Shown here piece after piece: positions 1-33,807 of a DNA stretch of 62,191 nucleotides. Origin of the DNA: a virus (Duplodnaviria > Caudoviricetes); the IMG/VR virus record IMGVR_UViG_3300032561_000021, positions 1 through 62,191 of that record; one strand, given 5' to 3'. How positions within the stretch are numbered: the stretch's first letter is position 1; every line of letters starts with the position of its first letter. Position numbers and translations under genes: made by a program. The notes beneath the pieces are model-generated. The model had not been told where the DNA came from and made no database searches. It saw nothing but the letters and a program-made list of their open reading frames with translations.

Positions 1-1
1 T

Positions 2-199
2 ATCGTAGAGTTAGTTGAAAACTACGACAAGGAGTCTAGAGCCATTAGAGATGAAGCGTTAAGAATGAGTTGGTATATGCGTGGGGGTATATCTTACGAT
101 GATGCTATGGCTTTAAGTTCTCAAGAACGAGAAATCATAGGAAACATTATTAAGAAAAATATGGAAACTACTAAAGAGAGCGGCCTTCCATTTTTTTAA
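2..199 (+). CDS. 5'-truncated baseplate hub assembly protein (T4 gp51-like), C-terminal part
   Basis: Read by hand in frame 2: IVELVENYDKESRAIRDEALRMSWYMRGGISYDDAMALSSQEREIIGNIIKKNMETTKESGLPFF*, TAA at 197-199. The WYMRGG-SY...ERE pattern resembles gp51-like proteins of large myoviruses. The start lies outside the window. Confidence 0.55.
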   Translation: MVELVENYDKESRAIRDEALRMSWYMRGGISYDDAMALSSQEREIIGNIIKKNMETTKESGLPFF

Positions 200-721
200 C
201 AGATTTAAGATCTACTTCGCAGATCTATTGCTTTCATTTCATTCAGCAATCGTTTTCTTCTTAAAGATATTAAACAGATAATGTTAAGACATACGTAAGT
301 CTTCTAGTATTATCCAGATTAATCAGTCACACTTTGCCCGATAAAGGGCAAAATGAAAATTGTAGCATTATCCGAGTAGCACAATCACATCACGTTACAC
401 TAATTACAGAGGCGGTCGTCCGGTACCTCGAAGTGCGTCTTTATTACGACGGCGGCTATTAAATATACGTGAACATATTTAATAACGTAGGAGTATTACT
501 CCTTCTTTTAGCCTTTCCTAAAATCTTTTCAAATAGCAAAACCGGTTGTTAATAGGCATATCCGATCATCGTCCTGTTAAGGATAGTTGCTAAGTGCTTG
601 CTACAGCGGCAAGACTTCCGTCCCCGTTATTATCCGGTTGTCATAGGCACATGATATTAACCTGTGCGAGTCACTACTGTATATTGATTGTTACTACTGA
701 GCAGACTTTGTGTCTATTGAA
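200..721 (-). ncRNA. putative large structured non-coding RNA (family not recognised)
   Basis: About 520 nt with no ORF >=60 aa in a gene-dense genome. Inverted repeats at 208-226, 227-250, 286-303, 333-352, 359-385, 398-435 (nested), 436-451, 457-484, 489-503, 534-592 (three-way junction), 592-617, 647-667 and 702-716. Several stems need G-U pairs that form only on the minus strand. Confidence 0.6.
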
Positions 722-1150
722 TTAAATCTTGTTGATAATGTGTGAGCCATGTACACGGACCTGGATGTGTCCGTTATAATAATCGTTGCTTTCTAATACT
801 CTACGAGCAAATTGTTCTCTTGCTTCAATGTAACTACATTCGGATTTTGATCGACAATAGTAAAGTATTTCTCTACTAAAGTTTTCGACCCCCAATGCAA
901 CTACATCTTTTGTTAGTTCCGGGCTAGAACCATAATAGTCTTGCCAGTCACTGTCAATCTTGCTACGAATCTTCTTTTTCTTCTTAGTTCCGTTCTTCAG
1001 CTTAACTACTTTATACGCTGTTTTACTAAACTTTGCGAGCTTTTTGCCAATATATTTTCTACCAGACAGTTTATTAGTAATCAAATAAACAAATCCGACA
1101 CAATCTTCGGGAAGAGATTCTACTAGAGAGGTTTCGTAAAGCCATGACAT
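722..1150 (-). CDS. minimal GIY-YIG (Seg-like) endonuclease, catalytic domain only
   Basis: Motifs GFVYLITN...KYIGKK, YYGSS, REIL, Glu in SYIEARE and YYN. Lys-rich insert KVVKLKNGTKKKKKIRSK. No C-terminal DNA-binding domain. Confidence 0.8.
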   Translation of the reverse strand: MSWLYETSLVESLPEDCVGFVYLITNKLSGRKYIGKKLAKFSKTAYKVVKLKNGTKKKKKIRSKIDSDWQDYYGSSPELTKDVVALGVENFSREILYYCRSKSECSYIEAREQFARRVLESNDYYNGHIQVRVHGSHIINKI

Positions 1151-1156
1151 GCATAG

Positions 1157-1164
1157 TAGTTATC
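1157..1164 (-). promoter_or_regulatory. putative late promoter variant GATAACTA, 6 nt before the GIY-YIG ATG
   Basis: One mismatch to the GATAAATA motif before structural genes, with similar short spacing to ATG as at 7771 and 13583. Confidence 0.45.
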
Positions 1165-1169
1165 TCTTT

Positions 1170-2192
1170 CTACCAGGAAGTTGCATATTCTTGATTTACT
1201 ACATTTCTGGTGCACTTAGTACGGCATTCTTGCCATGCAAACTGCTTAAAATCTCTAATCCAAAACTTGTCATTTACAGCATCTTGAAGAGTTCTAGTGT
1301 TTAAATTAAAACGACCAGCAATTTCCTGCCATTCTGTATTGTGGCTATAGCGATTAGCTACCCAACAACAAGGAAACAATCTACCTTGTGCATCTATGTA
1401 CAAGCCCTTGTTACCAATTTCGCATAAAGGAACTACATTAGGTACAACATCGCCTTGCGGCCGGGTCTTCTTAAATAATTCCAAATTGATCTGCTTAACT
1501 TCAGCATTAAGTCCGCGCTTGGTCAATACTACAACATCTCTTTCAAACCTGTGTGAACTACTTACATATCTATCGCTAGGTTGTAAGGGATCATCAATTC
1601 CGTAGCTAGGATATATCTTTCCAAACTTAGTACTACGAGTTAATTGGAAAGCATCCATTCCTAATTTTGTTGCTAAAGACTGCATGTATTCTATATGATC
1701 TTCGTTAAATTTAAACGCAATAGCGGCCCATACTAAACGACACCGGCTGGTAGCCCTTAGAGCCTCAATACCTTGGACAATAGACACGAAATCGCTGTTT
1801 ATCCTGTACAAATTGTTACTTGCATTGTCATACCCGTCCACGCTAAAGTGTACAGTATCTACTTCTGTGAGCACATTGCCTAGTGCTGTCCACCATTCTG
1901 TTTTCTTATGACTACCATTGGTAACAATAACAATCTCAACAGGTTTAATACTTTTGATATATTCAATTACTGCAATTAAATCGTGTGCATATATAGGATC
2001 GCCATCGTCGCCGCAGAACGTAATCTTCTCAACATTAGCAAGAATAAATTCTGATGTAAAATTTCTTTTAAAAAACTCTAAATCTAACTCAGTATTAACT
2101 AAACTATCTGGGACTTCTTGTCGGGCACACCGAGTACACCGTAAAGTACACTTACTAGATATTTCAATATGAAAATGCCACGTGGCTAGCAT
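1170..2192 (-). CDS. radical SAM enzyme with C-terminal SPASM/twitch-like Cys motifs
   Basis: CTLRCTRC (CxxxCxxC), GDDGDP, TNGS, FSVDG, and C-terminal C...LFPCCW...CRTKC. Confidence 0.85.
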   Translation of the reverse strand: MLATWHFHIEISSKCTLRCTRCARQEVPDSLVNTELDLEFFKRNFTSEFILANVEKITFCGDDGDPIYAHDLIAVIEYIKSIKPVEIVIVTNGSHKKTEWWTALGNVLTEVDTVHFSVDGYDNASNNLYRINSDFVSIVQGIEALRATSRCRLVWAAIAFKFNEDHIEYMQSLATKLGMDAFQLTRSTKFGKIYPSYGIDDPLQPSDRYVSSSHRFERDVVVLTKRGLNAEVKQINLELFKKTRPQGDVVPNVVPLCEIGNKGLYIDAQGRLFPCCWVANRYSHNTEWQEIAGRFNLNTRTLQDAVNDKFWIRDFKQFAWQECRTKCTRNVVNQEYATSW

Positions 2193-3058
2193 AGTTCAAC
2201 CTCGCGTTGCCATTGACTTTCAAATACAGTTATATTGGCCTTGGCGGTGCAAGTGATAACACACACAGGATCTGCCAATTCTGGGTTATCCCAGTGTATT
2301 GCAACTTGATTAATATCTGTGATAAAATCTTGTTGCCTTGCGCCTAACCAGCAACAAGGACTAATATTGCCTTGTGCATCTATGTAAATGCTTGCTTCTG
2401 CCAGTGCGTGACAATCGATTTTACCTGGGGTGTATGTTGGTCGTTGCCAATTGGCTGGTTCCTCTAGCCCGTTAATATATTCTCGCTTGCTAACCTTGGC
2501 ACGGAACCATTTGAACTTCATTCGTTTTGCTAGTGCTTCGCAAGCATCAACTTGATGTTCATTGTGTTTGTAGACCAGCATGTCCCAGTGGGCAGGGCCA
2601 CCGGCAGCAATAAATGATGCTACGTTGGCTTCTAGCACTTCCCAACTAACGTTTTTGCGGTATATGTGGTTGGTATCTTCTAACCCGTCTATACTGAACA
2701 CAACAAAATCGTTTGGCTTTCTGAGCAATCGTGCTAGTTTAATCCACCAGGTCATACTTTGTAATCCACCGTTGGTATTCATACCTAAGGTAATATCAGG
2801 ATTGATACTTCTAAAATATTCAAAAATTTCTAATGTGTATTTGCCTGCGGCAGGATCACCGTAGTTACCACACATAAACATTTTGTCCAGCCCGCGAATA
2901 AAGTCTTCGCTAAACTTTTCTTTAATTTGATCAACAGATAAATGATGTTTGATAGTTTTATCAAACGCAGGATCGATCTCACGAGCGCAAAGGGCACAGG
3001 CCGCCTGACAAACATCAGTTGGCTCAATGTGCAGTACTTTTATATCTCTGTTAAACAA
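2186..3058 (-). CDS. radical SAM enzyme with C-terminal SPASM/twitch-like Cys motifs
   Basis: CQAACALC, GNYGDP, TNGG, FSIDGLEDTNHIYR, SPCCW, CVITC. Paralogous to 1170..2192 and 45758..46756. Confidence 0.85.
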   Translation of the reverse strand: MFNRDIKVLHIEPTDVCQAACALCAREIDPAFDKTIKHHLSVDQIKEKFSEDFIRGLDKMFMCGNYGDPAAGKYTLEIFEYFRSINPDITLGMNTNGGLQSMTWWIKLARLLRKPNDFVVFSIDGLEDTNHIYRKNVSWEVLEANVASFIAAGGPAHWDMLVYKHNEHQVDACEALAKRMKFKWFRAKVSKREYINGLEEPANWQRPTYTPGKIDCHALAEASIYIDAQGNISPCCWLGARQQDFITDINQVAIHWDNPELADPVCVITCTAKANITVFESQWQREVELC

Positions 3059-4820
3059 TGTCTACGTCCGTATTATAACTTGTGTATCCGTTTTCTTTAA
3101 TAACATGCAAGGTATTGTTTACCCGGCCTGCCAGTTCGTCTTTGTGAGATACTAACCAAATTGACTTGTTGGCTTCACGGCTCATCTTTTTAAGAATACT
3201 TAAACTATTTTCAACACCGTTACTGTCCATGCCCGAATCGATTAGCTCGTCAATAAACAATAAGTTAATTGGTTGATATAAACTTTCCCATACATCACGG
3301 AACGACCAGGATAGAGATAAGATAAGTCTATTGCGCTCGCCTCTGGATAAATTATCAAAGTCTAGGTCACGTCCCAGTTCTGTAATGCTTACACTCAGAT
3401 CATTATTAAACTTAACTGTGTGTGGTAAGCCGATGCGATCCAGGTACTGCCCTAATCTGGCATTTAAATAACTTAAATTCTGATCAATGATACGCTTACG
3501 AATAAACGAATCTTTGTTTGTTAACAGTTTAAGCAAGAATTCTTGGTGATCTTTTAAGTTAGATAACTCGTTAATAACATCATATGTAACTTCTTCTAAT
3601 GCTGTAGTTTGCATTTCTGCAATTTGCTCATTATAAGGATCCGACTCTGCGGCTTTGGCAGTTAATTGTTTAATTAAATTATCTACCGTGGCTTGATGAT
3701 GAATAGCATCCGCTTCTTTATCGTAGAACATTACTGGACGGGTGCCGAGTTTGCCCAGCCCAGACTCAGCTTGTTGTAACTCAGCCAAAGTGGCAACATG
3801 AGATTCCGCACTCTCCCGTGCCACTGATAATTCTCTCTGCTTTGATCCCAGGACCTGTTGGTGCTTTTCGTCATGGAACTCTTGTCCGCACGTATGGCAC
3901 GTATGACTTTCCAACGAAACAAGTTCTGCTGATATCTTGCTAATCGTTTTCTCCTCGCGGTTACGGTCCAATTTGGTACGGCTAATCGCCGAAGATAATT
4001 CATTGAGATCCTTTCGAGTCTGATCCCAGGCTTTGAACGCTTGGTGTGCCTGAATCTCGGCCTGGATATCGATCTTCTGAAGCTCTTCGATCGCATCTTG
4101 TGTCTTGTTAATCTCTTCATCGTGCTTGTTGTTCCACAGGGTTTGTCTACGCTTCAATGCTTCGATCTGTTCTTGTATACGAACGTTGGCATCTGTTACG
4201 GCCTTAATGCGGAACTCCTCTGAGGTAATAGCATCCTTAGTTTTTTTGTTTAGCTCTTTTAAACTATCTGCTTTTTCTGACAATAAAGTAATGCCCAGTA
4301 ACTGTTCAATGATAGTACGTTGATCGTTTGATCTTAAACTAAGGAACGGTTCAGTGTAGGTGTTTAGTGCTACAATATGCTTGAACATATCGTGGCTCAT
4401 ACCCAACATACGTTCTATCTCTGCTTGTGTTTCTCTACTATCGCCCTGTGCATCATCGGTGATTTCTTTTTCTGTATCACCCACAAAGAACTTCATTATA
4501 TTTGGCTTGCGCCCACGTTCAATGCGGTAGTTAACTCCGTCTTTTTCAAAATCAATACAAACCATCATGTTTTTACCATTGGTCTTATTGATTAAGTTAT
4601 CTTTCTTAATGTTAGTAAGAGCATTGCCGTAAAGTGCAAAACTTAAGGCATTAATAATAGTAGTCTTACCTGTGCCATTCCGTGCACCAGAATCGTCGCC
4701 ACCCAGGTCCAAGTTTTCACCTAGTACCAGGGTTAAGTCTTGCCGGTCAAAGTTAACAGCCTGGGTAGTATTACCCACGCTCATAAAGTTCTTAACGGTT
4801 AAATCTTTTATTTTAAACAT
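3051..4820 (-). CDS. gp46: recombination endonuclease ATPase subunit (Rad50/SbcC-like)
   Basis: KNFMSVG, Walker A NGTGKTT, coiled coil with CHTC zinc hook, signature LSRGE, Walker B LLFIDE, VSH. Confidence 0.95.
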   Translation of the reverse strand: MFKIKDLTVKNFMSVGNTTQAVNFDRQDLTLVLGENLDLGGDDSGARNGTGKTTIINALSFALYGNALTNIKKDNLINKTNGKNMMVCIDFEKDGVNYRIERGRKPNIMKFFVGDTEKEITDDAQGDSRETQAEIERMLGMSHDMFKHIVALNTYTEPFLSLRSNDQRTIIEQLLGITLLSEKADSLKELNKKTKDAITSEEFRIKAVTDANVRIQEQIEALKRRQTLWNNKHDEEINKTQDAIEELQKIDIQAEIQAHQAFKAWDQTRKDLNELSSAISRTKLDRNREEKTISKISAELVSLESHTCHTCGQEFHDEKHQQVLGSKQRELSVARESAESHVATLAELQQAESGLGKLGTRPVMFYDKEADAIHHQATVDNLIKQLTAKAAESDPYNEQIAEMQTTALEEVTYDVINELSNLKDHQEFLLKLLTNKDSFIRKRIIDQNLSYLNARLGQYLDRIGLPHTVKFNNDLSVSITELGRDLDFDNLSRGERNRLILSLSWSFRDVWESLYQPINLLFIDELIDSGMDSNGVENSLSILKKMSREANKSIWLVSHKDELAGRVNNTLHVIKENGYTSYNTDVDIV

Positions 4821-17000: not shown

Positions 17001-17024
17001 AACACTATCGTAGGCACATATTAA
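14010..17024 (+). CDS. gp6: baseplate wedge protein gp6
   Basis: DFTSYDFETLR, ENFIDTAQRRDSIL..A..LSY, FGDG, QNRMITGEDY, WDFGDTFYFSEL. Confidence 0.9.
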   Translation: MAQTTRQTNLLVNQDWTKVYQSFTNADFTSYDFETLRNSMINYLQTYYPETFNDFLESSEYLALIDMIAFLGQSLSFRTDLNARENFIDTAQRRDSILKLARMLSYNPTRTQSASGLIKFNSISTTENITDSNGNSLANTTIYWNDLTNTNWLEQFTTILNATLVTNQAIGKPGNTQAINGVQTSEYTISLNRNTLPLAPFSVNIQNTKVNFEAVSASTLGQSYIYERDPTNLGQFNILYQNDNNGNNSNNTGFFLYFKQGSMQATNFKIQNAIPNNFVTVATNNINNSDGWLYSLNVNNVPQTLWTQVPALPGINVVFNQSTNKNLYQVNTLNNDQVSLVFGDGSFANIPQGAFNFYFRTSNGLSYTITPDDLSNVVVAIPYVDAHGNGQTLTVVASLQYTVTNATATQSLQSIKTYAPQNYYTQNRMITGEDYNIFPLTNFTSIQKIKAVNRTSSGVSLYLDTLDTTGSFSSTNIFADDGILYANAITGSETFSFLTTNDIYSAIYNDVIPVLSSTGMTNYYYANYPRYAPTHSNVTFVQTGNTTSSSYGNLTYNGNVINVGNVASGNLKYVTTGSSVKFLTNANSNATSFYSSVTNVVGNSQTYFGMVVPTGSIVSSIIPPIKNDLTGSVITTIATQIQSMVNFGLYFDQVNQVWANIPPSQIGSSTNWLLKFTYNAGLYNIQYKTLQYSFASASETNFYFDPTVKVYDSTIGAPVADLIKILKINSHPGNSTPLGTDIIWDIYDVITANDGYVSRNEILVSFPQTQMTGTPDNPDLYTTVANTATSRSSLYFQYKHNSPNRNRVDPTPVNLIDLYVLTADYTTSYMNWIQDLTGTLVEPVAPTSSSLEIAYSKLDNFKTVSDSLIYNPAKFKPLFGSKADPSLRARFQVVINPAVSITPNEVKSQVIAAINAYFNIANWDFGDTFYFSELAAYLHTSLVPTIASVLIVPADDNLVFGNYFQINAEPWEIITSAATVNDVDIISAVTAAQLNLGNTIVGTY

Positions 17025-20000
17025 TGGCAATAAGATCAACACTTAATTTTTTACCAGATACCTTTAAATCGGTAACCAACCAACGCTTCCTTGGCGCAAC
17101 TATAGATCAGTTATTAACTGATGCAGTTAACATTCCGGTTAGTGGATATATTGGTCGAACATTTGCTCCAACATATAAACTAGGCGACAATTATGTTCCT
17201 GAGTTTAGTACTCAGCGTGCCAACTATCAACTTGAGCCAAGTGTTGTGGTTAAAGATAAAAACAACAATGTGGTATTAAACAGTGGATATATTGACCTAC
17301 TACAAAGTATTGCAAACAATGGCGGACTAGTAGATAATCATCAACGTTTATTTACATCTGACTATTATAATTTTGATGGACATTTTGATTACGATAAGTT
17401 TGTAAACTATAACAATTACTACTGGATACCAAATGGCCCGGACTCAGTTGAAGTAACATCCGGCGCAACTCCACTACTGGCAGACTACACAGTTACAAGA
17501 AATACAGCAGTGGGTGGTTTTACATTTAGTACCTATGGCGGACATCCTAATACGCAATTGACATTGGCTCGTGGGGGTACATATAAATTTATAGTTGACC
17601 AACCTGGCTTTAACTTCTGGATTCAAAGTGAAGAAGGCGTTAATGGCGTAGATCCCAACGTGGCAACTATTAATACCAGAGAAGTATATGGTGTTAGTAA
17701 CAACGGCACAGACTCTGGCGTAATACAATTTAATGTTCCGCAATCAAATGCACAAGACTTTTTTGTTAGTATGCCCACTAATGCTACAGTTAGTGCCGCA
17801 GTAACATTTAATTATACTGACATACAAAACGTATTATTAAGTACCTTCCTGAAGAACTTTCCCGAAGGCCTAGATGGCATTACTAATCAATTACAAAATA
17901 AAACATTTATTTTTATTAACAATGCACAAGACGATAGTTTCTGGACAGTGGCCGGCGGCCTAATGCCAGGCGTTGTTCCTACAGCTAACCGCCCGGGCGT
18001 ATGGCAAATTAATTTGGTACCCACAGGATCAGATTATACAATACAAATTCGTCCAACCGTTGGTGTAGCTTCATTACAAAAGATCTTTATTGGATCCGGT
18101 AAAACGTATGCATCAACTCAATTCTGGTTGAATCAAAATAACATATATCAACGTGTGCCATTGATCACAGCTCCTGCTGCTTACTTGTTTTATCAAGATA
18201 GTAGTAATCCAGAATTTGTAGGACAAATCAAATTAGTAGATAACGTATCAACACCAATTGATATTAATAACGACATTCTTGGTAAAACCAATTACACAAG
18301 TCCAAACGGCGTGATATTCACCAATGGACTTAAAGTTCAGTTTGATAGCTTAGTTGTCCCTGGCACCTATGCAGGCAATCAATATTATGTTGATGGTGTT
18401 GGCACTGGTATTGCACTTGCCCCAGTTGATCAATTGATTGTACCTGAATCGTTTGCATCAGAAATCGCAACAACCACAGATTATATAACTATTAATCGCT
18501 CTAGCCAGGATCGTAATGCCTGGAGCCGTAGTAACCGTTGGTTCCATAAAGATGTATTGAATGCCACAGCCGCATACAATAACACTTCAGTCAACTACGG
18601 GCCTAATATGTCCGGCCGTCGTGCTATCATTGAATTTGAACCCAACCTACAGTTATTCAACTTTGGATCACAAGCTAAGAATAGTGTTGATTTAATTACA
18701 TTTGATAGTACAGATGCCTTCGTTCACATTGAGGGACAGCAGTCGTATACGCTTGATGGAATATTGTTGACTCAAGGTATGCGTGTTATTTTTGCAAATG
18801 ACTACGATACCACCGTTGCAAATGAAATTTGGCAAGTTGACATTGAATATATTAATAGTCAATATTTCTTAAGATTAATTGAAACATCGGATGATCCAGT
18901 TATTGCTGGACAATCTGTTTTAATTTCTCAGGGTGCCAACGTTGGTAAAACATTCTGGTTTGATGGAACCAGCTGGCATAGCAGTCAAGAAAAAACAGCG
19001 TTTAACCAAGCACCACTGTTTGATCTAGTAGACAATAACGGATACAGTTTCAGCGACACTACAGTATATCCTAGCAGCACATTTAGTGGAACAACATTCT
19101 TTAGTTATCCAACTGTGGCAACAGGCACCAATGATTCTGTATTGGGCTTTCCTTTACAGTATCAAAACTTTAATAACATTGGCGATATTGTATTTGAAAA
19201 CTCATACGACACTGATACCTTTACTTACGAGTCTGGTGTAAACACCACATCAAAGATTGCATGTAACACAGGATACCTGGTTAAAAATAATGCCAATGGT
19301 GAAACAATCAAGTTGAATAATTGGTTGGTGGGTATTGAGCCAACTGAACAATATCAACTTATAACTAAGTTTTTTGATGGTCGCTCTTTATCTATTGTAC
19401 AAGATACTAGTGCAACATATCCAATTGGATCAATTACTCCAGCTGGTGCTTATGCAGCTATTCAACTTGATGCATTGCCTGTAGATTCTGCAACTATTCC
19501 GCATCTTAAGGTTTATGTAAATAATCAAATACTAGAACCTGGCAACGATTACAATTTAATACCTTATGGTGTTTACAATGTTATAGCATTGATGTCTACA
19601 CCGGCAGTTGGTGATAAAATTGACATTGCAGTATTCGGTGATAGCGTTAGTGCAATTGGGTTTTATCAGATTCCGCAGAACCTCGATCTTAATCCATTAA
19701 ATCAAGTATTCCCGGCAGTTGGTTCAGCGAACTCTGGGATTACACTTGGTCAAATTCGCACACACTATAATAAGTTACTTGAAAATACAACATTTAGTTC
19801 TAGTGCCACTATTCCTTCTCAAGACAGATATTTAAAAGCACAGGGCGGCACGCTACTACAACATAGTAGTCCGGCAATCTATGCAATGACTTTCATGACT
19901 GATCCAGTGGTTAATATCGTTAATGGCCTAACACTGGCAAGAAATGAATATCAGCGTTTTAAGAATAAGTTTTTACACCTGTGTCAAACGCTAAAAGGAT

Positions 20001-23000
20001 TAGATTATAACGATCCAATCTCTGGTGTTGACACAATCATGTCAAGTATTAACTCTGTTAAGAACAGTAGTTTTCCTTGGTATTATAGCGATATGGTACC
20101 ACAAGGTAGTAACTATTCTACAATTAACTATACTGTATTAAATGCTCGTCAGACAAACTACGAAATTAACAGCATCTTTGACACCACTGCGTTGAGCAAT
20201 CGCGCAGTTTTGGTATATCATAATGGCGTTCAATTAATTGGTGATGGCAATGATTATTCTTTTAATCCTGTTAGCCCAGAAGTTATAATTAATATACCGC
20301 TAACATTTGGTGACAAATTAATGATCCGCGATTACTCGGACACTGATGGAAATTATGTTCCTGAGACTCCAATCAAGTTGGGATTAGCACAAGACTACCC
20401 CCCGGCAATATTTACAGATACTACTTACCTAACCCCAGTCACGGCTATTCAAGGACACGATGGTAGTATTACTCCGGCGTTTGGAGACTTCAGAGACGAA
20501 TTCTTATTTGAACTTGAAAAACGTATCTACAACAATAACAAATCTACAGTTGAACGTGGTATTCTAAATCACTACGATGTGATCCCTGGGCGTTTCCGTA
20601 AAACCGATTATAGTTTGCCCGAGTGGACACAATTAATCACGCAGAATTTCTTGGAATGGGTTGGTAGTAACAACATTGATTATACATCAAACGAATCTTA
20701 CAATGAAAACAATCCGTGGACTTGGAACTACGACCAATGGACAGACAGCGTAGATGGTAGTTACTTACAGGGGTCTTGGAGAGCCATTTACAACTACTGG
20801 TTCGACACAGATACCCCACACACTAGTCCATGGAACATGTTGGGATTGACAAAAATACCATCATGGTGGGCAACTCGATATGGTCCTGCACCCTACACAA
20901 GTGGTAATACAACATTGTGGGCTGACTTAGAAGCTGGATATGTATGGAACGGCAGTAACGCTCTAGCATACCACGACGTAAGATTTGCTCGTCCGGGACT
21001 AACCAAGTTTATACCTGTTGATTCTGCCGGTAACCTATTAGATCCAACTGCAATTGGGATTGTTGGTAAACAAAATCCAACATCTGCTAGTAATAGTTTT
21101 CAAGTTGGGGAATATGGTCCTGTAGAAACAGCATGGCGCCGTAGTAGTGATTATCCTTTTGCTATTCAGCAGGCACTGGCATTGGCTCGTCCGGCGCAGT
21201 ATTTTCCTACAATGTTAGACTTGAGTCGCTTTTATAAAAATCCAGTTACCGGACAATTCAGTAATCTAGCTAATCAAAAGATTGCCCCAACATTATTGAC
21301 CGTAAATGGCGATACTATGACCAGTCCTGGCACAGTACTAAGAACATGTGGTTACTTAAACTGGATTGCTGACTATGTTAAGAATCTTGGCATGGATCCT
21401 GTTGCTAAAATTGAAAGTTACTTTAATAACTTTAGTGTACAACTAGCATATAAAGTTGCTGGATTTACAGATCAGAATCTGATTAGCATTACAGCCGAGC
21501 AAACAAGTCCCGGCAGTACCAATTCTAGTATTATTATTCCTACGGAAAATTATGTTGTTTATCTTGGCAAGCCGGTTCCTGTTAAAACTATTTCGTATAG
21601 CGGTGTAGTAGTAACAAAAACCAACAACGGTTATTCTGTGTCTGGATACGATACGTCACACCCATTCTTTAATATTTTACCAAGTGTTGCAAATAATAAT
21701 TCGCAAACAATTACTGTAAATAATTTAACAGCTAAGATATATCAGACAGGTAGTAAAACTCCGTTAACTATTCCATACGGGACTACATTTACTTCGCCAC
21801 AACAGGTAGCAGACTTTTTAATTAGTTATCAACGGTATTTGTCCAGTCAAGGTTTCTTGTTCACAACATTTGACATAGAGTTGCAAACCACACGAGATTG
21901 GATATTGAGTATACGTGAGTTCCTAACCTGGGCACAACAGGGTTGGGCCACTGGCACAATATTGGTATTAAATCCTGTAGTAGATGTGCTAGAAGTTAAT
22001 ACAATTGGGACTGTCATTGATGAAATTACTAATATTCCCAACGGTAGCCGTTTATTAAATACAAACTTTGCACCAATTAAGAGTACTAATTTTAATATTC
22101 TTAGAAGCGATAGCCCTACGGCACCATTGTACAATCAGTTCCAGGTTAGTACACTAGACACTACCGGTATTGCATTTGCAGAGTTGGACTTAATTCAATA
22201 CGAAACTACATTAATATTTGACAATATTGATGACTTTGGCGATATTATTTATATTCCCGAGCAAGGCACACGTCAATTCCGATTAAAACTAAACGGAGTA
22301 AAAACCGGTGGATGGGACGGCGCATTAAGTGCAGCTGGGTATATCTACAGCAATCCAAAAATTGCAAATTGGCAACCTGGCACTGATTACAAGCAAGGCG
22401 ACTTGGTAACCTATAACAATGCAACTTATACAGCACCTATAGATATTGTTGCTAGCCAGAACTTTGCATTAAGCAACTGGACACAAATCAATATTGGTGA
22501 TATTCAAACAGGTTTACTTCCTAGCTTTGGTCACAATGCACAAGTATTTGAAAATATCTATGACGTAGACAGTCCGCCACAAGATAAGAATTTCCAACTA
22601 TTCAGCGCAGGTTTAATTGGCTTCCGCGAACGCCCGTTCTTGAGCAATTTAGGAATTAGCGTCCCAACGCAGACTAAGTTCTACCAGGGATATATTAAAC
22701 AAAAAGGTACAATTGATGCTATCACAGCATTGACTAGTGCAACCTTTGACACGATTGCAGGCAACATCAACGTATACGAAGAATGGGCATTTCAAGTTGG
22801 GCAATACGGATCAGTTAATAGTAACCAATACACAGAATTTGTTTTAGACCAAAGTGTATTTTTAACAAACCCTGTGTCACTCACTGCAACTAATAATTAC
22901 AATACTGGAAACATCATTGTTAATTTAGCAGTAACTGGAAATACCACAACATCAAACGTGTATAATGCTAGTAACATATACAGTACTTCTACCTCATTGT

Positions 23001-26000
23001 ATAACAACAGAGCGAATGTTGCATACTCGTCGGACTTACCTACATCTGGTTACGTAAACTTAGCCGATGTTGATTATCAAATTTTTGATATTTCAACTAT
23101 TACTGCATTACCTGGTATTGTTGATGGTAATAAAATTTGGGTAGCCAAAGATTTTGGCGGCGGTTGGAACGTATATAGAACTAACGCAACACCATTGACT
23201 ACAGCAAACTTGAACTATTCATTAGGATCAACTGCACAATTGGTCTTTAATACTACACATAGTTTAACCCAAAATGAATTCTTTGTAGTACAAGGATTTA
23301 GTAGTGTATATGATGGTTTATATCAAGTTAATAGTATTCCAAATAATACAAGTGTAACAATTACAATACAAAACACCGCAAACATTATTGCGTCGGGTGG
23401 TAGTATATCAAGCACTGGTAATATCTTTACATTGCAATCTATGGTAATATCAAATGACGCATCAATTGGCAATAACCCTCCGCCCAACGGTTGGTTAACT
23501 AATGATCGTCAGTGGGTAAACACAGATACAAATGCTGGCGCAACAGGCTGGGCAGTATATACTTACAATGCTGGTTCAAGTACCTGGTCCCGCACAAGAC
23601 AACAAGCACCTACAGTAGATATCAACAGCATTGGTAGAACATTCATTTACAATAAGTCAAACAATGTTATATTATCTTCTATAGATTATATTGACCATGC
23701 TAAAGGAAAACTATTAAATGCAATTGGTGCGGATATTGATTACCAATTGACTTCCGATCCTGCGTTATATAATGCAGGAACTGGAACAATATATACAGAC
23801 TATCACTGGGGTCCTGATCAAGTTGGTAAAATTTGGTGGGACGTTGATGCAGTTAGATATATTAACTACGAACAAGATCAATTGATTTATAGATTAAACC
23901 AATGGGGCACAACATTCCCGGGCAGTCAGATTGCAGTTTATGAATGGGTACAAAGTCCTGTTCCGCCTAGTGAGTATGTGGCCACTGTTGGCAACGGCGT
24001 TCCGTTGGCCGCAGATGATAGCGCATTTAGTGCCATGGCATTTGTTGACGATACAGGTGCAGTACAAGTTGGGTACTATTTCTGGGTAGCAGGTAAGACA
24101 TCAATCAATACAGCAGCCGGAAAATCAAATAGCGTATACAACATTACTGCTGCAATTATAAATCCACAAGCACAGGGCATACCGTACGCAACAGTATTGC
24201 GCGACGATACCATTGCATTATATAATGTTAATTCTGCATTAACTGGACAAAATAGTGTTCTACACATTGGCGCACGTAACGTTCAATCTGGTGTAGTACA
24301 CAGTGAGTACCAATTGGTACAAGAAGGTAATCCGCACAGTCAAATTCCTGCTGTTATAAAGAGTAAAATCGTTGACAGTATAGTTGGACAAGACGCCGCT
24401 GGTAACGCAGTACCCGATCCAGCGTTAACCCCAGCACAAGCATACGGCATTGGTATTCGTCCTCGTGAAAGTATGTTTATTAACCAGTCGCTGGCACTGA
24501 GTAATTATCTAACATTTGTAAATGGGATTCTCGCAACATATCCAGTAGTTGAACGCAAGTTAATGACTGGGTTAAACAGTGAGCAAGCCATTCCAAATCC
24601 AAGTTCTGGCAGTTATAGCCGAGTAGTTGATACCTATGCCGAATTAGCGTATGTAGATGCAGGCCTGCTAACAATTGGTTATAAAATTTTAGTCAACAGC
24701 GATATTAATAATTTGGGCAAGTGGGCAATTTACGAATTAGCTACAAAGACTACAACCAATTCTGTAACAGTAGGAACATGGTCATTGGTTACAGTACAGA
24801 GTTTTAAGACTAATTTATATTGGACATTCCAAGATTGGTACCAGACTGGATATGATTATACAGTAACACCTGACATCGCGGTGGCCAATTTACTCGAATA
24901 CGGTAAACTAACACCAACAGCAAATACTTACGTTAAAGTACTGAATGCCAGTAACAATCAATTTGTTGTTTACTATGTTGATAGTAATTTAACATCATCT
25001 CTGGTAGGAATTCAGAATGGCACTATTCAAATTGAAACTGCAACAATTCCTCCGGCACTTGAGCTAAGAGAAATACTAACAGCAATAGAACATGACATTT
25101 TTGTTGATGATTTAGCACTAGACTATAACCAATTGTTTTTTACTATGGTTAAGTATGCATTGTCAGAACAAAAGAATCTTGATTGGGTATTTAAAACTAG
25201 TTTCTTAAGTGCAACTCAATACCTACGCCAGTTAGAACAGGTACCTGCGTATGTAGCAGATAACCAACAATACTACTTAGATTATATCAACGAAGTTAAA
25301 CCATACAGAACAACAATCCGTGAATTTGTTGTGGATTATCAAGGCAATGATCAATTCTCCGGAGACACAACCGACTTTGACTTGCCACCATACTGGGATG
25401 CAAACTTAAATGTATATCGTAGTCCAAATGGAGAACAAGCCGGTGATGCAAACTTATTAAGTACAACTAATAGCGTATATAGTCAGTGGTATCAAAACTA
25501 CACATACGATGTCGTTAATGTGATTGTAGAAACACCGGGCGAAGGCTTCTTATTTGCGCCTCAGATAATAATTACCGGTGGCGGCGCAACGGTTAATGCC
25601 ACTGCTTACGCTACACTCAATGGCACAGGCGGCATTGGTAGCATTGTAATTACAGATTCTGGTAAAGGGTACACAACCACTCCGACTATTTTAATCAATG
25701 GCACAGGCACCGGTGCAACTGCATATCCGGTATTGCGTAATGTGTTTGATAATAATAATTCTGGACATAATGTGATCAGAAGTATTGCAACCACGGTGAA
25801 GTTTGACCGTGTTAACTATACTGCGGCCAATACCTTTGTATTCTGGAGTAATATTACAACAGCAAACATAGGACAAACATTAACTGCCAATACTATTATT
25901 GTTAACAATGATATACTATATGTTCTAGCTAATGCTTACACGATTGATGCAAACGTTGATTTCCCGGTTGCTAATGTATCCACAATTAATGCTGGTGCAT

Positions 26001-27325
26001 TTAACAATGCAAACGATCGTATTGTTGCCTACAACGGGTATATCAATTTGGCAACAACACAGTCTGGATTAGAGTATCCGGGTGTGATTGTCGACGGCAA
26101 CACATTTACTAGTAACATATACGATTCTGTTATCCAAAGTTTCTATGGAAATACATTAGGAGTCAATCCTTATGATATTAACATTGATGGCGGATCATAT
26201 GTAAACACTTTTAACAGCCATGCACCTGAAGAATTAGTTCCGGGCCGTATGTTTGATAGTTTAAATTTAACTGTATATGATACATCTGGCTTAGATTATA
26301 GACTATTCAACAATATGACAGGTAACGTACAATCATATAGAATTGCAAAAGCCAATGTAACAACATTGTCCAGCAACCTACACTTAACAGACAGTACAAT
26401 CTCTGTGGTTAATGCTAGTATATTACCGTTGCCAAGTATTGCTCAAAATACTCCAGGTGTAGTGTTTATCAACGGTGAGAAGATTACATACTGGAGAAAC
26501 TACGCACTTGAAACACAAACTCCATGGACTGCAAATGCTGTCATTGCTACTAATACGTTAATTAGCTACAGTGGAAATACCTATATTACAATTGGTAATG
26601 TATACGGTTTGTTGTTTGCTAACATTGCAGCAAATGTGCAACAAGTAAGTATAAACACACTGGCACAAATTCGACGCGGGGTTGATGCAACATATTCGCC
26701 TGCTATCCAATTAGCAACGAGTCGTGTTGTTGATTCAAGTGTACAACAATTAATTCCAAACTCAACGATTATTTCATCTTCTACAACAGGAAATGTCGTT
26801 TATTCAACATCTGCATCTACCGCAGTGAGTTACGGATTAACTTTAAACTTGCCACTGAGTGCCAACTGTGGTGATATTATTACACAAAGAGATATGACTT
26901 CAAATGTAGTGACTGCTACTATGCGTGTACTGGAAACTGTTACAACTGCTAATGTAATTCCGGTTATTATTCTAAGTGGCGCAGTCAATGGACCTGTATT
27001 CTACGACGACGGAATTGGATTTGACGAAGAATTATTTGATAACACGTCTGCATCGGCATTCGTTAACGGGGTACAAACAACCAGCTACATTAAAGGTGTG
27101 TATATGTTAGGCAATCCTGCAAACATAGCAACCCCAGGATTAATAACTACCAGCGGTGCAATAACAGTTCTAGTAAATACAGCAATATCTGTTGGTAACT
27201 GTTGGTACACACCAGGAACCGGCGTTCCTGCAAACGGATTTGGATTAGATGCAAGCACAACCGCACAAGCTACCTTCTTACTAGCTAGTTTAGGATTTGT
27301 TGCAACCCCAGGAACTACACCATGA
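17024..27325 (+). CDS. giant baseplate wedge/virion protein (gp7-like position), 3433 aa
   Basis: Follows gp6. DKFVNYNNYYW and YINEVKPYRT motifs, carbohydrate-binding-like W..G..Y..GD.V.Y modules, G.GY...P repeats. Confidence 0.65.
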   Translation: MAIRSTLNFLPDTFKSVTNQRFLGATIDQLLTDAVNIPVSGYIGRTFAPTYKLGDNYVPEFSTQRANYQLEPSVVVKDKNNNVVLNSGYIDLLQSIANNGGLVDNHQRLFTSDYYNFDGHFDYDKFVNYNNYYWIPNGPDSVEVTSGATPLLADYTVTRNTAVGGFTFSTYGGHPNTQLTLARGGTYKFIVDQPGFNFWIQSEEGVNGVDPNVATINTREVYGVSNNGTDSGVIQFNVPQSNAQDFFVSMPTNATVSAAVTFNYTDIQNVLLSTFLKNFPEGLDGITNQLQNKTFIFINNAQDDSFWTVAGGLMPGVVPTANRPGVWQINLVPTGSDYTIQIRPTVGVASLQKIFIGSGKTYASTQFWLNQNNIYQRVPLITAPAAYLFYQDSSNPEFVGQIKLVDNVSTPIDINNDILGKTNYTSPNGVIFTNGLKVQFDSLVVPGTYAGNQYYVDGVGTGIALAPVDQLIVPESFASEIATTTDYITINRSSQDRNAWSRSNRWFHKDVLNATAAYNNTSVNYGPNMSGRRAIIEFEPNLQLFNFGSQAKNSVDLITFDSTDAFVHIEGQQSYTLDGILLTQGMRVIFANDYDTTVANEIWQVDIEYINSQYFLRLIETSDDPVIAGQSVLISQGANVGKTFWFDGTSWHSSQEKTAFNQAPLFDLVDNNGYSFSDTTVYPSSTFSGTTFFSYPTVATGTNDSVLGFPLQYQNFNNIGDIVFENSYDTDTFTYESGVNTTSKIACNTGYLVKNNANGETIKLNNWLVGIEPTEQYQLITKFFDGRSLSIVQDTSATYPIGSITPAGAYAAIQLDALPVDSATIPHLKVYVNNQILEPGNDYNLIPYGVYNVIALMSTPAVGDKIDIAVFGDSVSAIGFYQIPQNLDLNPLNQVFPAVGSANSGITLGQIRTHYNKLLENTTFSSSATIPSQDRYLKAQGGTLLQHSSPAIYAMTFMTDPVVNIVNGLTLARNEYQRFKNKFLHLCQTLKGLDYNDPISGVDTIMSSINSVKNSSFPWYYSDMVPQGSNYSTINYTVLNARQTNYEINSIFDTTALSNRAVLVYHNGVQLIGDGNDYSFNPVSPEVIINIPLTFGDKLMIRDYSDTDGNYVPETPIKLGLAQDYPPAIFTDTTYLTPVTAIQGHDGSITPAFGDFRDEFLFELEKRIYNNNKSTVERGILNHYDVIPGRFRKTDYSLPEWTQLITQNFLEWVGSNNIDYTSNESYNENNPWTWNYDQWTDSVDGSYLQGSWRAIYNYWFDTDTPHTSPWNMLGLTKIPSWWATRYGPAPYTSGNTTLWADLEAGYVWNGSNALAYHDVRFARPGLTKFIPVDSAGNLLDPTAIGIVGKQNPTSASNSFQVGEYGPVETAWRRSSDYPFAIQQALALARPAQYFPTMLDLSRFYKNPVTGQFSNLANQKIAPTLLTVNGDTMTSPGTVLRTCGYLNWIADYVKNLGMDPVAKIESYFNNFSVQLAYKVAGFTDQNLISITAEQTSPGSTNSSIIIPTENYVVYLGKPVPVKTISYSGVVVTKTNNGYSVSGYDTSHPFFNILPSVANNNSQTITVNNLTAKIYQTGSKTPLTIPYGTTFTSPQQVADFLISYQRYLSSQGFLFTTFDIELQTTRDWILSIREFLTWAQQGWATGTILVLNPVVDVLEVNTIGTVIDEITNIPNGSRLLNTNFAPIKSTNFNILRSDSPTAPLYNQFQVSTLDTTGIAFAELDLIQYETTLIFDNIDDFGDIIYIPEQGTRQFRLKLNGVKTGGWDGALSAAGYIYSNPKIANWQPGTDYKQGDLVTYNNATYTAPIDIVASQNFALSNWTQINIGDIQTGLLPSFGHNAQVFENIYDVDSPPQDKNFQLFSAGLIGFRERPFLSNLGISVPTQTKFYQGYIKQKGTIDAITALTSATFDTIAGNINVYEEWAFQVGQYGSVNSNQYTEFVLDQSVFLTNPVSLTATNNYNTGNIIVNLAVTGNTTTSNVYNASNIYSTSTSLYNNRANVAYSSDLPTSGYVNLADVDYQIFDISTITALPGIVDGNKIWVAKDFGGGWNVYRTNATPLTTANLNYSLGSTAQLVFNTTHSLTQNEFFVVQGFSSVYDGLYQVNSIPNNTSVTITIQNTANIIASGGSISSTGNIFTLQSMVISNDASIGNNPPPNGWLTNDRQWVNTDTNAGATGWAVYTYNAGSSTWSRTRQQAPTVDINSIGRTFIYNKSNNVILSSIDYIDHAKGKLLNAIGADIDYQLTSDPALYNAGTGTIYTDYHWGPDQVGKIWWDVDAVRYINYEQDQLIYRLNQWGTTFPGSQIAVYEWVQSPVPPSEYVATVGNGVPLAADDSAFSAMAFVDDTGAVQVGYYFWVAGKTSINTAAGKSNSVYNITAAIINPQAQGIPYATVLRDDTIALYNVNSALTGQNSVLHIGARNVQSGVVHSEYQLVQEGNPHSQIPAVIKSKIVDSIVGQDAAGNAVPDPALTPAQAYGIGIRPRESMFINQSLALSNYLTFVNGILATYPVVERKLMTGLNSEQAIPNPSSGSYSRVVDTYAELAYVDAGLLTIGYKILVNSDINNLGKWAIYELATKTTTNSVTVGTWSLVTVQSFKTNLYWTFQDWYQTGYDYTVTPDIAVANLLEYGKLTPTANTYVKVLNASNNQFVVYYVDSNLTSSLVGIQNGTIQIETATIPPALELREILTAIEHDIFVDDLALDYNQLFFTMVKYALSEQKNLDWVFKTSFLSATQYLRQLEQVPAYVADNQQYYLDYINEVKPYRTTIREFVVDYQGNDQFSGDTTDFDLPPYWDANLNVYRSPNGEQAGDANLLSTTNSVYSQWYQNYTYDVVNVIVETPGEGFLFAPQIIITGGGATVNATAYATLNGTGGIGSIVITDSGKGYTTTPTILINGTGTGATAYPVLRNVFDNNNSGHNVIRSIATTVKFDRVNYTAANTFVFWSNITTANIGQTLTANTIIVNNDILYVLANAYTIDANVDFPVANVSTINAGAFNNANDRIVAYNGYINLATTQSGLEYPGVIVDGNTFTSNIYDSVIQSFYGNTLGVNPYDINIDGGSYVNTFNSHAPEELVPGRMFDSLNLTVYDTSGLDYRLFNNMTGNVQSYRIAKANVTTLSSNLHLTDSTISVVNASILPLPSIAQNTPGVVFINGEKITYWRNYALETQTPWTANAVIATNTLISYSGNTYITIGNVYGLLFANIAANVQQVSINTLAQIRRGVDATYSPAIQLATSRVVDSSVQQLIPNSTIISSSTTGNVVYSTSASTAVSYGLTLNLPLSANCGDIITQRDMTSNVVTATMRVLETVTTANVIPVIILSGAVNGPVFYDDGIGFDEELFDNTSASAFVNGVQTTSYIKGVYMLGNPANIATPGLITTSGAITVLVNTAISVGNCWYTPGTGVPANGFGLDASTTAQATFLLASLGFVATPGTTP

Positions 27326-33482: not shown

Positions 33483-33500
33483 AAGCAATGGTTATTTAGT

Positions 33501-33523
33501 GATAAGTAAGTAATAATAGGAGA
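33501..33523 (+). promoter_or_regulatory. late promoter variant GATAAGTA plus RBS AGGAGA
   Basis: GATAAGTA at 33501-33508 and AGGAGA at 33518-33523. The same variant occurs at 33780-33787. Confidence 0.55.
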
Positions 33524-33527
33524 TTAT

Positions 33528-33764
33528 ATGTCAGGAGTTAATAATCCAGGTCACCCGGGCTCGGGACAAAATGGCGGAGAAGGCGGTGCCACACCGTTTG
33601 GTGCAGGCGGAACACCTTCTATGACTGATGGAAATAATGCAACAGGCGCAGGCGCAGGTGGCGGCGGTGCAGGAGATACTATTTCTGCAATAGGCGGCAA
33701 CGGCGCCAACGGATACGTAAAAATCTACTGGGGTCCAAATAATGACCCAAATTGGGTTACCTAA
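33528..33764 (+). CDS. 78-aa glycine-rich peptide, C-terminal half of the Gly-rich fibre domain
   Basis: Strong RBS. GEGGATPFGAGG...GAGAGGGGAG...GGNGANGYVKIYW is the usual ending of the domain begun in 29398..30627. Confidence 0.75.
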   Translation: MSGVNNPGHPGSGQNGGEGGATPFGAGGTPSMTDGNNATGAGAGGGGAGDTISAIGGNGANGYVKIYWGPNNDPNWVT

Positions 33765-33779
33765 TAATAATCCGTTTTT

Positions 33780-33787
33780 GATAAGTA
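33780..33787 (+). promoter_or_regulatory. late promoter variant GATAAGTA
   Basis: Intergenic, upstream of fibre gene 33808. Confidence 0.5.
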
Positions 33788-33807
33788 TACTATAAAGAGA
33801 TATAAAA

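Follow-up and report, generated by a model that had tools for sequence, protein, structure and literature searches.

GOLLD, ROOL and OLE are treated as large ornate RNAs in bioRxiv 10.1101/2024.12.08.627333. The Polynucleobacter-1 motif was catalogued by Weinberg et al. 2010 (Genome Biol 11:R31; PMC2864571), whose table row for it gives 'y' for RNA, 'y' for cis-regulatory and '?' for switch, with Burkholderiales and fresh water/estuary as its setting. In Rfam the motif is family RF01718 and is typed as gene/sRNA. Here we analyze this motif in a viral record from IMG/VR (IMGVR_UViG_3300032561_000021; 62,191 bases, completeness rating 15%); the whole stretch is called the window throughout, and its genes point to a T4-like phage. 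We are highly confident that the minus strand of the window from ~690 to 205 is the gene for a single structured non-coding RNA, carried by phages that are T4-like (Kyanoviridae-like) and uncultured. We hold with the same confidence that its parts are, in order, a 5' domain that is the Polynucleobacter-1 RNA (672-531), an uncatalogued 3' domain (~504-306), a variable linker and terminal hairpins (250-208). The full-length architecture is new relative to the literature; 531-672 is a member of the known family RF01718.

A preliminary description of the window, made from its letters alone, had singled out positions 200 to 721 as the largest non-coding gap, tiled with stems. When open reading frames (ORFs) of at least 80 aa are counted, this gap is indeed the largest; the next one, of ~325 nt (33483-33807), is overlapped by a minus-strand ORF. 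All the stems that had been listed are present at their positions. No conserved ORF was found in the gap: the longest closed ORFs have a median length of 53 aa, with scattered starts and mostly on the opposite strand, which led us to reject a coding function. Insertions and deletions relative to the window number 802, 327, and 174 for lengths leaving 1, 2, and 0 when divided by three, respectively; since they do not come in threes, the region is not coding. A BLASTN search with positions 1-760 of the window against the loci of relatives described below delimited a conserved block, ~306 to 687, that stops sharply near 306-308. This block and two recurring hairpins beyond it, A and B, place a single conserved minus-strand element, from ~690 to 205, across nearly the whole gap.

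The minus strand folds with z = -2.9, and 0 of 100 shuffles are as good; the plus strand gives z = -2.1, with 3 of 100 as good. Folding energy alone is modest evidence, and the comparative evidence is the real support. The preliminary description had seen no signature of a transfer RNA (tRNA), a transfer-messenger RNA (tmRNA) end, RNase P or group I P7 here. ARAGORN finds 0 tRNA or tmRNA genes across the whole window, no intron-family Rfam match appears even at E <= 10, and no same-strand gene lies downstream in the window.

In a cmscan search, RF01718 was matched at 531-672 on the minus strand with 102.1 bits against a gathering score of 37 (E 1.2e-22 to 5.7e-21). This is a textbook-strength match, covering model positions 1-141 of 141. 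The consensus fold of the family, three hairpins followed by an outer stem around two hairpins, is complete in the window, as is the set of conserved stretches (GGGA.GGAA, ACUAUCC, and GGAC). The three-way junction that had been noticed in the letters (TAGCAA 534-539 with TTGCTA 587-592, enclosing 540-567 and 572-583) is P4 of this family enclosing P6 and P5, and the helix at 592-617 contains its P3 (597-613). In the 69-sequence alignment introduced below, nearly every pair of P1, P3, P4, and P6 shows changes on both sides. Beside P5 (window 583/571 on the minus strand, columns 150/162) there is also a non-canonical covariation, U-C in 50 sequences and C-U in 19, never a standard pair.

The earlier claim of an ornate RNA of unrecognised class therefore divides in two. 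A large ornate minus-strand RNA is present, but 142 of its ~485 nt (531-672) belong to a known family, so the novelty falls for the best-described part. Outside RF01718, cmscan of window positions 1-1300 at E <= 10 found nothing above noise, and a literature search found no paper on an extended RNA beyond the Polynucleobacter-1 motif; besides the 2010 catalogue, the accession RF01718 turned up only as a bare string in two genome reports. The window shares with the catalogued motif the whole model and all six helices; it differs in that the RNA is longer, is found in T4-like phage contigs, and carries the motif as a domain that is exchangeable in relatives. The catalogued motif makes up the first 29% of a conserved RNA of 400-485 nt.

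The gene order bears on the role suggested for the motif. The motif does not stand in a 5' leader: it follows a gene, and ~300 nt of conserved RNA and then convergent genes come after it, so the suggested cis-regulatory role does not fit. That position was a suggested and not a defining property of the family, so the RF01718 membership stands. We consider it extremely unlikely that the RNA is a cis-regulatory leader or riboswitch for a downstream gene. The catalogue row quoted above speaks for such a role, as does a same-strand gene that follows hairpin B in some relatives, and the compact invariant pseudoknot described below could conceivably be a ligand pocket. However, the next genes are convergent in the window and in most relatives (cluster 3 with 65 members and cluster 2 with 88 members; all 153 ORFs lie on the opposite strand), and what comes after the motif is no ribosome-binding site but another 300 nt of conserved RNA.

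Relatives and the constant 3' domain

Relatives were collected with a motif-derived pattern, which matched at least 115 viral contigs, and with a search using the GIY-YIG protein encoded upstream of the RNA, from which the best 80 of at least 590 viral stretches were taken. Of the 195 viral loci fetched in this way, 163 contain the element according to two rounds of nhmmer. The 115 pattern loci comprise 86 with both domains, 9 cut by the contig end, and 20 without a match (chance pattern matches); none is partial or has only the 3' domain. Among the 80 GIY-YIG loci, both domains are present in 40, only the 3' domain, with a different 5' part, in 26, and a partial element in 2. None of these is cut by the contig end, and 12 have no match, six of which end within 224 nt after the gene. 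Because the 5' part is swapped in 26 of these loci while the 3' domain stays, the 3' domain is the constant core of the RNA. A pattern for this domain gave 110 further viral loci; nhmmer found the element in 108 and both domains in 101. Overall, the element is conserved in more than 250 viral contigs.

For the variants with only the 3' domain, Rfam gave no match at gathering score in 20 loci and none at E <= 1 in 8 loci. A second RNA type (L130, L131, L153, L132, L145, L139, L127, and L138, at ~3430-3600) has a different conserved 5' part of ~165 nt and retains the knotted core, the boxes, and the terminal hairpins. BLASTN of window positions 1-1300 against 50,697 GenBank phage records returned no match. 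The 3'-domain pattern had 58 matches in 185,579 species genomes, seven of them real; all seven are in metagenome-assembled genomes (MAGs) or uncultured bins, one labelled Polynucleobacter. This placement fits a virulent phage origin. A lake-water metatranscriptome contains contigs identical to the flanks of the RNA in the window, which, together with the one real match in a Polynucleobacter MAG bin, makes a freshwater setting plausible.

We aligned the window and 68 relatives, all less than 92% identical, with MAFFT (n = 69). The pool for the relatives was 125 full-length copies, 104 of them unique; the window itself replaces its 98%-identical relative L079. RNAalifold on the raw alignment recovered only 29 pairs because the variable hairpins are misaligned. 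We therefore wrote out 76 pairs manually, guided by mutual information and by the sequence of the window, and counted them on the alignment. Mutual information picks out the Rfam helices plus new helices. Across the 76 pairs, 79.1% of the cells are paired, versus 64.1% after shuffling and 35.4-45.9% when the partners are slid. The covariation in relatives, which the preliminary description had proposed as a check, is far above the controls: the score is 0.421, against 0.176 for shuffled alignments (reached by 0 of 500) and 0.076-0.100 for slid partners.

The 3' domain contains two pseudoknots (Table 1). In pseudoknot A, mutual information identifies the pairs 471/391, 470/392, 469/393, and 468/394, of which 93-97% are Watson-Crick or G-U. 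The inner pseudoknot, B, contains the 17-nt stretch GGUAC.G....ACCGCC (427-411), whose 12 specified positions are invariant or nearly so in the 69 sequences. The helices of the knotted core have G-U and A-C combinations at 14 to 2, 4 to 2, and 58 to 4. The stems reported earlier fall into place here: the helix at 457-484 is the 10-bp stem H8, the nested stem at 398-435 is H10 plus H9b, and the helix at 333-352 is hairpin H12. Insertions of ~15-50 nt between the 3' strands of H9b and H10 mark an expansion site of the core in L027, L073, L183, and L164 (alignment columns ~397-453). An HDV-like or group I topology of the core was considered and rejected, as the helix order does not fit.

The strand is fixed by the G-U pairs. 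In the helices of the 3' domain G-U is found 149 times and A-C 20 times, and in P6 of the 5' domain the counts are 112 and 1. G-U lies well above A-C in each, which assigns both domains to the minus strand. The closures GAUCGG/CCGGUU (P6) and UAGAC/GUCUG (716-712 with 706-702), previously cited as minus-strand signals, do form G-U on this strand only.

The hairpins around the core are less regular in the alignment. All six pairs of H7 change on both sides, and 52.7% of its cells are paired in the misaligned MAFFT columns. Read on the plus strand, H7 scores as an intrinsic terminator with the tail TCTTTT; it and the A-rich linker before it may also stop late plus-strand transcripts running antisense into the RNA gene. 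The linker motif AAAGGCWAAA was considered as a phage-wide signal and dismissed, with nine matches in the window versus 14.5 expected. H11 is visible by eye in every lineage with its columns shifted, and 46-47% of its cells are paired. For H12, RNAalifold returned a pair at columns 522/531 (CG 52, GC 8, UA 6, UG 3); the window row is one column off in H12, which lowers the count.

Beyond the second box, the variable linker is not alignable across the family. In many relatives it has a short hairpin (~4-bp stem, UUC loop) followed by U's, and in others it is A-rich only; in L076 a 10-nt unit, TCAAATGTGA, follows the box in ~4 tandem repeats. A script requiring the stems found hairpins A and B together in 99 of 125 unique downstream stretches. 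In 57 sequences the inner stem of hairpin A is 100% paired (GC 45, AU 12; CG 53, UA 4) and its outer stem 81.4%, while in hairpin B 7 of 7 pairs change on both sides and 86.6% are paired. Jointly the two hairpins are 86.5% paired, a figure inflated by the stem-demanding script that selected the 57 sequences, and their covariation is 0.548 versus 0.195. G-U and A-C counts of 32 and 20 do not decide their strand. Neither a hammerhead nor a kink-turn reading of hairpin A fits its strand lengths.

Table 1. Coordinates of the RNA, its helices and boxes, and the flanking genes in the window, listed along the minus strand; x-y/z-w are the two strands of a helix
Feature	Position	Strand	Remarks
GIY-YIG gene, 142 aa	722..1150	-	PF19835 SegE_GIY-YIG, E 7e-32, residues 3-129; outside the RNA
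Small hairpin UAGAC/GUCUG	702..716	-	just 3' of the GIY-YIG stop; also in L130 and L131
5' domain, Polynucleobacter-1 RNA	531..672	-	cmscan, full model
P1	667-663/651-647	-	98.6% of cells paired
P2	637-635/626-624	-	Rfam model
P3	613-610/600-597	-	94.0% of cells paired
P4	592-588/538-534	-	79-87% of cells paired
P5	582-581/574-573 plus 586/570	-	Rfam model
P6	567-562/545-540	-	94.3% of cells paired
A-rich inter-domain linker	505..530	-	alignment consensus; carries AAAGGCUAAA at 507-516
Hairpin H7 (GGAGU AAU ACUCC)	489..503	-	sequence and length vary among relatives
Hairpin H8	457..484	-	10-bp stem 484-475/466-457; inner stem 87% paired
Pseudoknot A	472-467/395-390	-	H8 loop with 395-390; 94.7% paired, 6 of 6 pairs change on both sides
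Knotted core	390..450	-	H9a crosses H9b and H10 (pseudoknot B); includes the 3' strand of pseudoknot A (390-395)
H9a	450-446/419-415	-	98.2% of cells paired, compensatory changes
H9b	429-426/412-409	-	outer pairs (429-428 with 409-410) 97.1% paired
H10	436-432/401-397	-	73.4% of cells paired
Hairpin H11	358..386	-	stem 386-380/364-358; box R1 in loop; provisional
Box R1 (GGAUAAU)	373-367	-	H11 loop
Hairpin H12 (UUUGCCC UUUAUC GGGCAAA)	333..352	-	between boxes R1 and R2
Second repeat unit, GUGUGACUGAUUAAUCU	306..330	-	box R2 (GGAUAAU) at 315-309, 58 nt after R1
Variable linker	262..305	-	local hairpin 303-299/290-286, A-rich tail; possible 3' end of the RNA
Hairpin A	227..250	-	stem 250-245/232-227, GA, inner stem 242-241/237-236, GAA
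Hairpin B (AGAUCU GCGAAGU AGAUCU)	208..226	-	other possible 3' end of the RNA
Convergent 73-aa-family gene, 3' end	2..199	+	context, outside the RNA

Twin boxes and their possible partner

A unit of ~28 nt, consisting of GUGAYU, a spacer, and a 7-nt word, is present twice in the 3' domain, 58 nt apart and with H12 between the copies. The word, here called box R1 in the first copy and box R2 in the second, varies by lineage (6-10 nt, median 7) and is identical in R1 and R2 of each RNA. The variants are GGAUAAU, GGAUGAU, GGAUGAA, AGAUAAU, GCAUAAU, GGUCAAG, AGACAAG, and others. The box couplings are couplings of identity, not base pairs, and they are among the strongest mutual-information signals in the alignment: columns 487/555 are GG in 39 RNAs and AA in 23, columns 491/559 AA in 33 and GG in 23, and columns 493/561 UU in 45 and AA in 9. 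A third copy of GGAUAAU lies in the P2 loop of the window (635-629, minus strand); in relatives this loop is box-like without a strict match to the boxes.

A tree built without the box columns was used to count changes. The first box position changed at least 18 times in R1 and at least 19 times in R2. In tree-independent pairs, three box positions changed together in 10 of 10 (p 0.002), 7 of 7 (p 0.016), and 6 of 6 (p 0.031) cases, respectively. Neighboring variable columns lack such coupling; simple linkage is therefore insufficient to explain the boxes. Boxes that are kept identical through many independent changes are a rare constraint, and one that predicts a reader with two sites.

No complementary partner of the boxes was found in cis, whether in the RNA, the locus, or the window. 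When each of the 69 RNAs was scanned for runs of at least 7 nt complementary to its box, only the U/G-rich end of P4 was returned (29 sequences); it was rejected as a partner because it pairs with any purine-rich word and shows no covariation. Loci show no enrichment of the reverse complement of the box they carry. In the window GGATAAT is found nine times versus 9.7 expected, and three of the nine are inside the RNA. The lack of a complementary partner in cis points to a reader in trans. The coupling would be explained most simply by a single reader that has two equal sites, or by a complementary word present in two copies in trans. Two other ideas were discarded: that the boxes mimic the start region of the nuclease gene (own-box match 0.679, other-box match 0.685), and that ribosomes hop between the matched sites, as there is no reading frame.

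Overall, the account developed here is the best explanation we have for the locus, and we would put it a little short of an even chance. As to mechanism, we suggest only tentatively that the RNA is a trans-acting scaffold or decoy showing two identical boxes to one two-sited partner. The RNA would probably be made by read-through transcription from the recombination-gene operon (the SbcD- and SbcC-like genes, then the nuclease gene). Matches to a sigma-70-like promoter were considered as evidence for a promoter of its own and set aside, with five found versus 3.7 expected in shuffles; the only minus-strand match (716-687, 9 of 12) overlaps the UAGAC/GUCUG hairpin. Its 3' end would probably lie either at the linker hairpin (near 286-303) or further on, at hairpin B (208-226). 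R1 would be presented by the knotted core in the loop of a hairpin, and R2 in a single strand 58 nt away. Both boxes would be read by one partner, perhaps an RNA-binding protein that forms dimers or a nucleic-acid word present in two copies, and the RNA would act on this partner in trans during infection. The identity of the boxes is a direct experimental handle on this proposal.

Several observations weigh against this account. H7, the outer part of H8, H11, and H12 are poorly paired in the MAFFT columns (46-59%), which we attribute to misalignment. In the main clade the box word varies at only a few positions and so takes few distinct states, and the reader of the boxes is a postulate. The relatives are all uncultured contigs obtained with patterns derived from the family itself, and their counts describe this sample, not all phages. 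In the lake metatranscriptome (share 0.11), contigs cover only 1-118 and 1031-1185 of the window, and contigs cannot show absence. Finally, H7 and hairpin B can also be read as plus-strand transcription terminators, and part of the conservation may serve plus-strand termination.

The last point leads to an alternative in which the region is mainly a cis-acting transcription boundary: a 3' tail that stabilizes the operon mRNA, with terminators that separate convergent late (plus) and early (minus) transcripts, and nothing that acts in trans. The region does lie between convergent genes, it begins a median of 17 nt past a stop codon, and H7 is a plus-strand intrinsic terminator by score. Hairpin B, of undecided strand, is followed by a T-rich stretch on the plus strand, and from its position and this tail it is probably the terminator of the convergent plus-strand gene. 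Yet terminators need neither two pseudoknots nor a near-invariant 17-nt core, nor strand-specific G-U pairs (149 to 20), nor boxes that change together, and Rfam curates the 5' domain as an RNA family of the type gene/sRNA. We judge the boundary unlikely as the main explanation of the region.

Gene neighborhood

The gap is a 3'-to-3' junction: a plus-strand gene has its stop at 199 and the minus-strand GIY-YIG gene has its stop at 722. Upstream of the RNA, the minus strand carries a Metallophos (SbcD-like) gene and an AAA_23/SMC_N (SbcC-like) gene, which we read as equivalent to T4 gp47 and gp46. Next come two radical-SAM genes (1170-3058, minus strand; one with a SPASM domain), between the AAA_23 gene and the 142-aa GIY-YIG gene; in relatives this slot has different genes or is empty. 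On the plus strand there is a baseplate module that includes a Phage_base_V protein, with a T4_baseplate protein in relatives. The flanks are syntenic among relatives, with the SbcD- and SbcC-like genes upstream and the 73-aa-family and baseplate-hub-like genes converging downstream. In the relatives a T4 baseplate-hub-like gene precedes the 73-aa-family gene, and a 290-aa member of the convergent cluster matches PF12322 T4_baseplate (1e-10) and phrog_150 baseplate hub. The structural-gene region of the window also includes an ORF as long as 3433 aa (17024-27325, plus strand).

Relative L079, which is 97-98% identical to the window, contains an extra 239-aa ORF with a NUMOD3 DNA-binding motif (L079:4149-4868). 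It is inserted exactly between the stop of the convergent gene and hairpin B (equivalent to 199-203 of the window). The NUMOD3 motif is typical of homing endonucleases, and this ORF indicates that mobile endonuclease genes do land beside the RNA gene.

The position of the RNA at the end of the Metallophos/AAA_23 recombination module raises the possibility that it marks or primes a replication origin, as a structured transcript that stays on the DNA or recruits the replication machinery. T4 has R-loop replication origins. The linker after R2 is A-rich and easily melted, and a nuclease gene is always upstream, either GIY-YIG or, in eight loci, a PDDEXK nuclease (PF24608) whose PHROG label is Holliday-junction resolvase and which takes the GIY-YIG place. 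An R-loop primer, however, can do without a conserved tertiary fold, and tight pairing within the RNA is at odds with a lasting RNA-DNA hybrid. An origin is in our view distinctly unlikely.

The GIY-YIG protein also matches phrog_447 (E 2e-36). Its 142 aa are almost filled by the catalytic domain, and there is no DNA-binding module. A sequence search for a solved structure of this protein returned nothing significant (best E 0.33, an unrelated neuraminidase). The name 'NAD synthetase', which phrog_447 bears in PHROGs and in many GenBank records of cyanophages and rhizobiophages, looks like a propagated mislabel. Of 93 pattern-found loci with room for it, 84 have a homologue immediately before the RNA, as do 83 of 86 loci of a second sample; the median distance from the nuclease stop codon to P1 is 17 nt (quartiles 8-32, n = 170), and in the window it is 54 nt.

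Such a neighbor, a bare catalytic domain encoded directly before the RNA, could suggest that the RNA is a partner, guide, or regulator of the nuclease in an OMEGA-like ribonucleoprotein. This idea is already weakened, and we think it very unlikely. By TBLASTN the GIY-YIG family is present in 473 GenBank phage records, mostly of cyanophages (339 are named Synechococcus phage), and BLASTN with the window finds none of these phages. Three records were opened (Melnitz-3, S-SSM7, and phiM12), and none has an RNA-sized gap behind the gene; the next gene is at most 148 nt away or overlaps. The presence of the family elsewhere without the RNA and the swap for the unrelated PDDEXK nuclease make the nuclease a conserved neighbor in this phage lineage, not an obligate partner. 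In addition, there is no long hypervariable guide, as the only variable word has 7-9 nt and is present twice, and the box word does not track the nuclease start region, as the match values above show. The link to the GIY-YIG gene drawn in the preliminary description thus holds for the neighborhood and has gained no functional tie, and a reading as an RNA-guided GIY-YIG nuclease is poorly supported.

Comparison with known RNAs

Polynucleobacter-1, an orphan since 2010, is in these phages one exchangeable domain of a much larger RNA found in hundreds of uncultured T4-like phage contigs, and the constant part is an uncatalogued, doubly knotted domain. The analysis corrects the boundaries of the catalogued motif as well as the cis-regulatory role suggested for it.

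OMEGA guide RNAs include the omega RNA of IscB and TnpB, and HEARO. As in these systems, the gene for a small nuclease lies directly before a long structured RNA and shares its strand. In contrast, the nuclease family here is widespread without the RNA and is replaceable, and there are no transposon ends. A guide of the OMEGA type (~12-20 nt or more, at the scaffold end) was not found in the RNA; its variable word has 6-10 nt, is present twice, and lies inside the RNA.

CsrB and RsmZ are protein sponges, and ToxI consists of type III antitoxin repeats. The RNA resembles them in showing a short word repeatedly, in a loop and in a predicted single strand, with a spacing compatible with a dimer, and many box variants carry GGA. 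It differs in having two or three copies only, placed inside a large knotted fold. AGA replaces GGA in both boxes of 23 of the 69 RNAs, and a coupled drift of the word would not be expected for a conserved host protein. The locus does not look like that of a type III antitoxin: two imperfect units of ~28 nt are split by a hairpin, and the next genes are convergent, belong to the baseplate module, and include no toxin gene; PADLOC was not scanned.

GOLLD, ROOL and OLE-type RNAs are associated with phages. No Rfam match to GOLLD, ROOL, OLE, HEARO, or raiA was found, Polynucleobacter-1 being the sole match at gathering score in the window. To our knowledge, an identity-coupled pair of boxes is not a feature of GOLLD, ROOL, or OLE, and the architecture is different from theirs. 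Like them, the RNA is several hundred nucleotides long, has more than one pseudoknot, covaries strongly, is carried by phages, and lacks a known function. It is possible, although we think it improbable, that the RNA founds a class of its own among the large ornate phage RNAs, equal in rank to GOLLD and ROOL, and that its core positions two identical, fast-drifting boxes for a co-evolving two-sited reader. If so, the reader could be, for example, a phage or host nucleic-acid word or a dimeric protein controlling recombination-dependent replication or host defense, and the RNA would serve as a programmable decoy or cofactor rather than as a passive structure. The few large ornate RNAs without a known function, such as GOLLD, ROOL, and OLE, gain a further candidate in this RNA.

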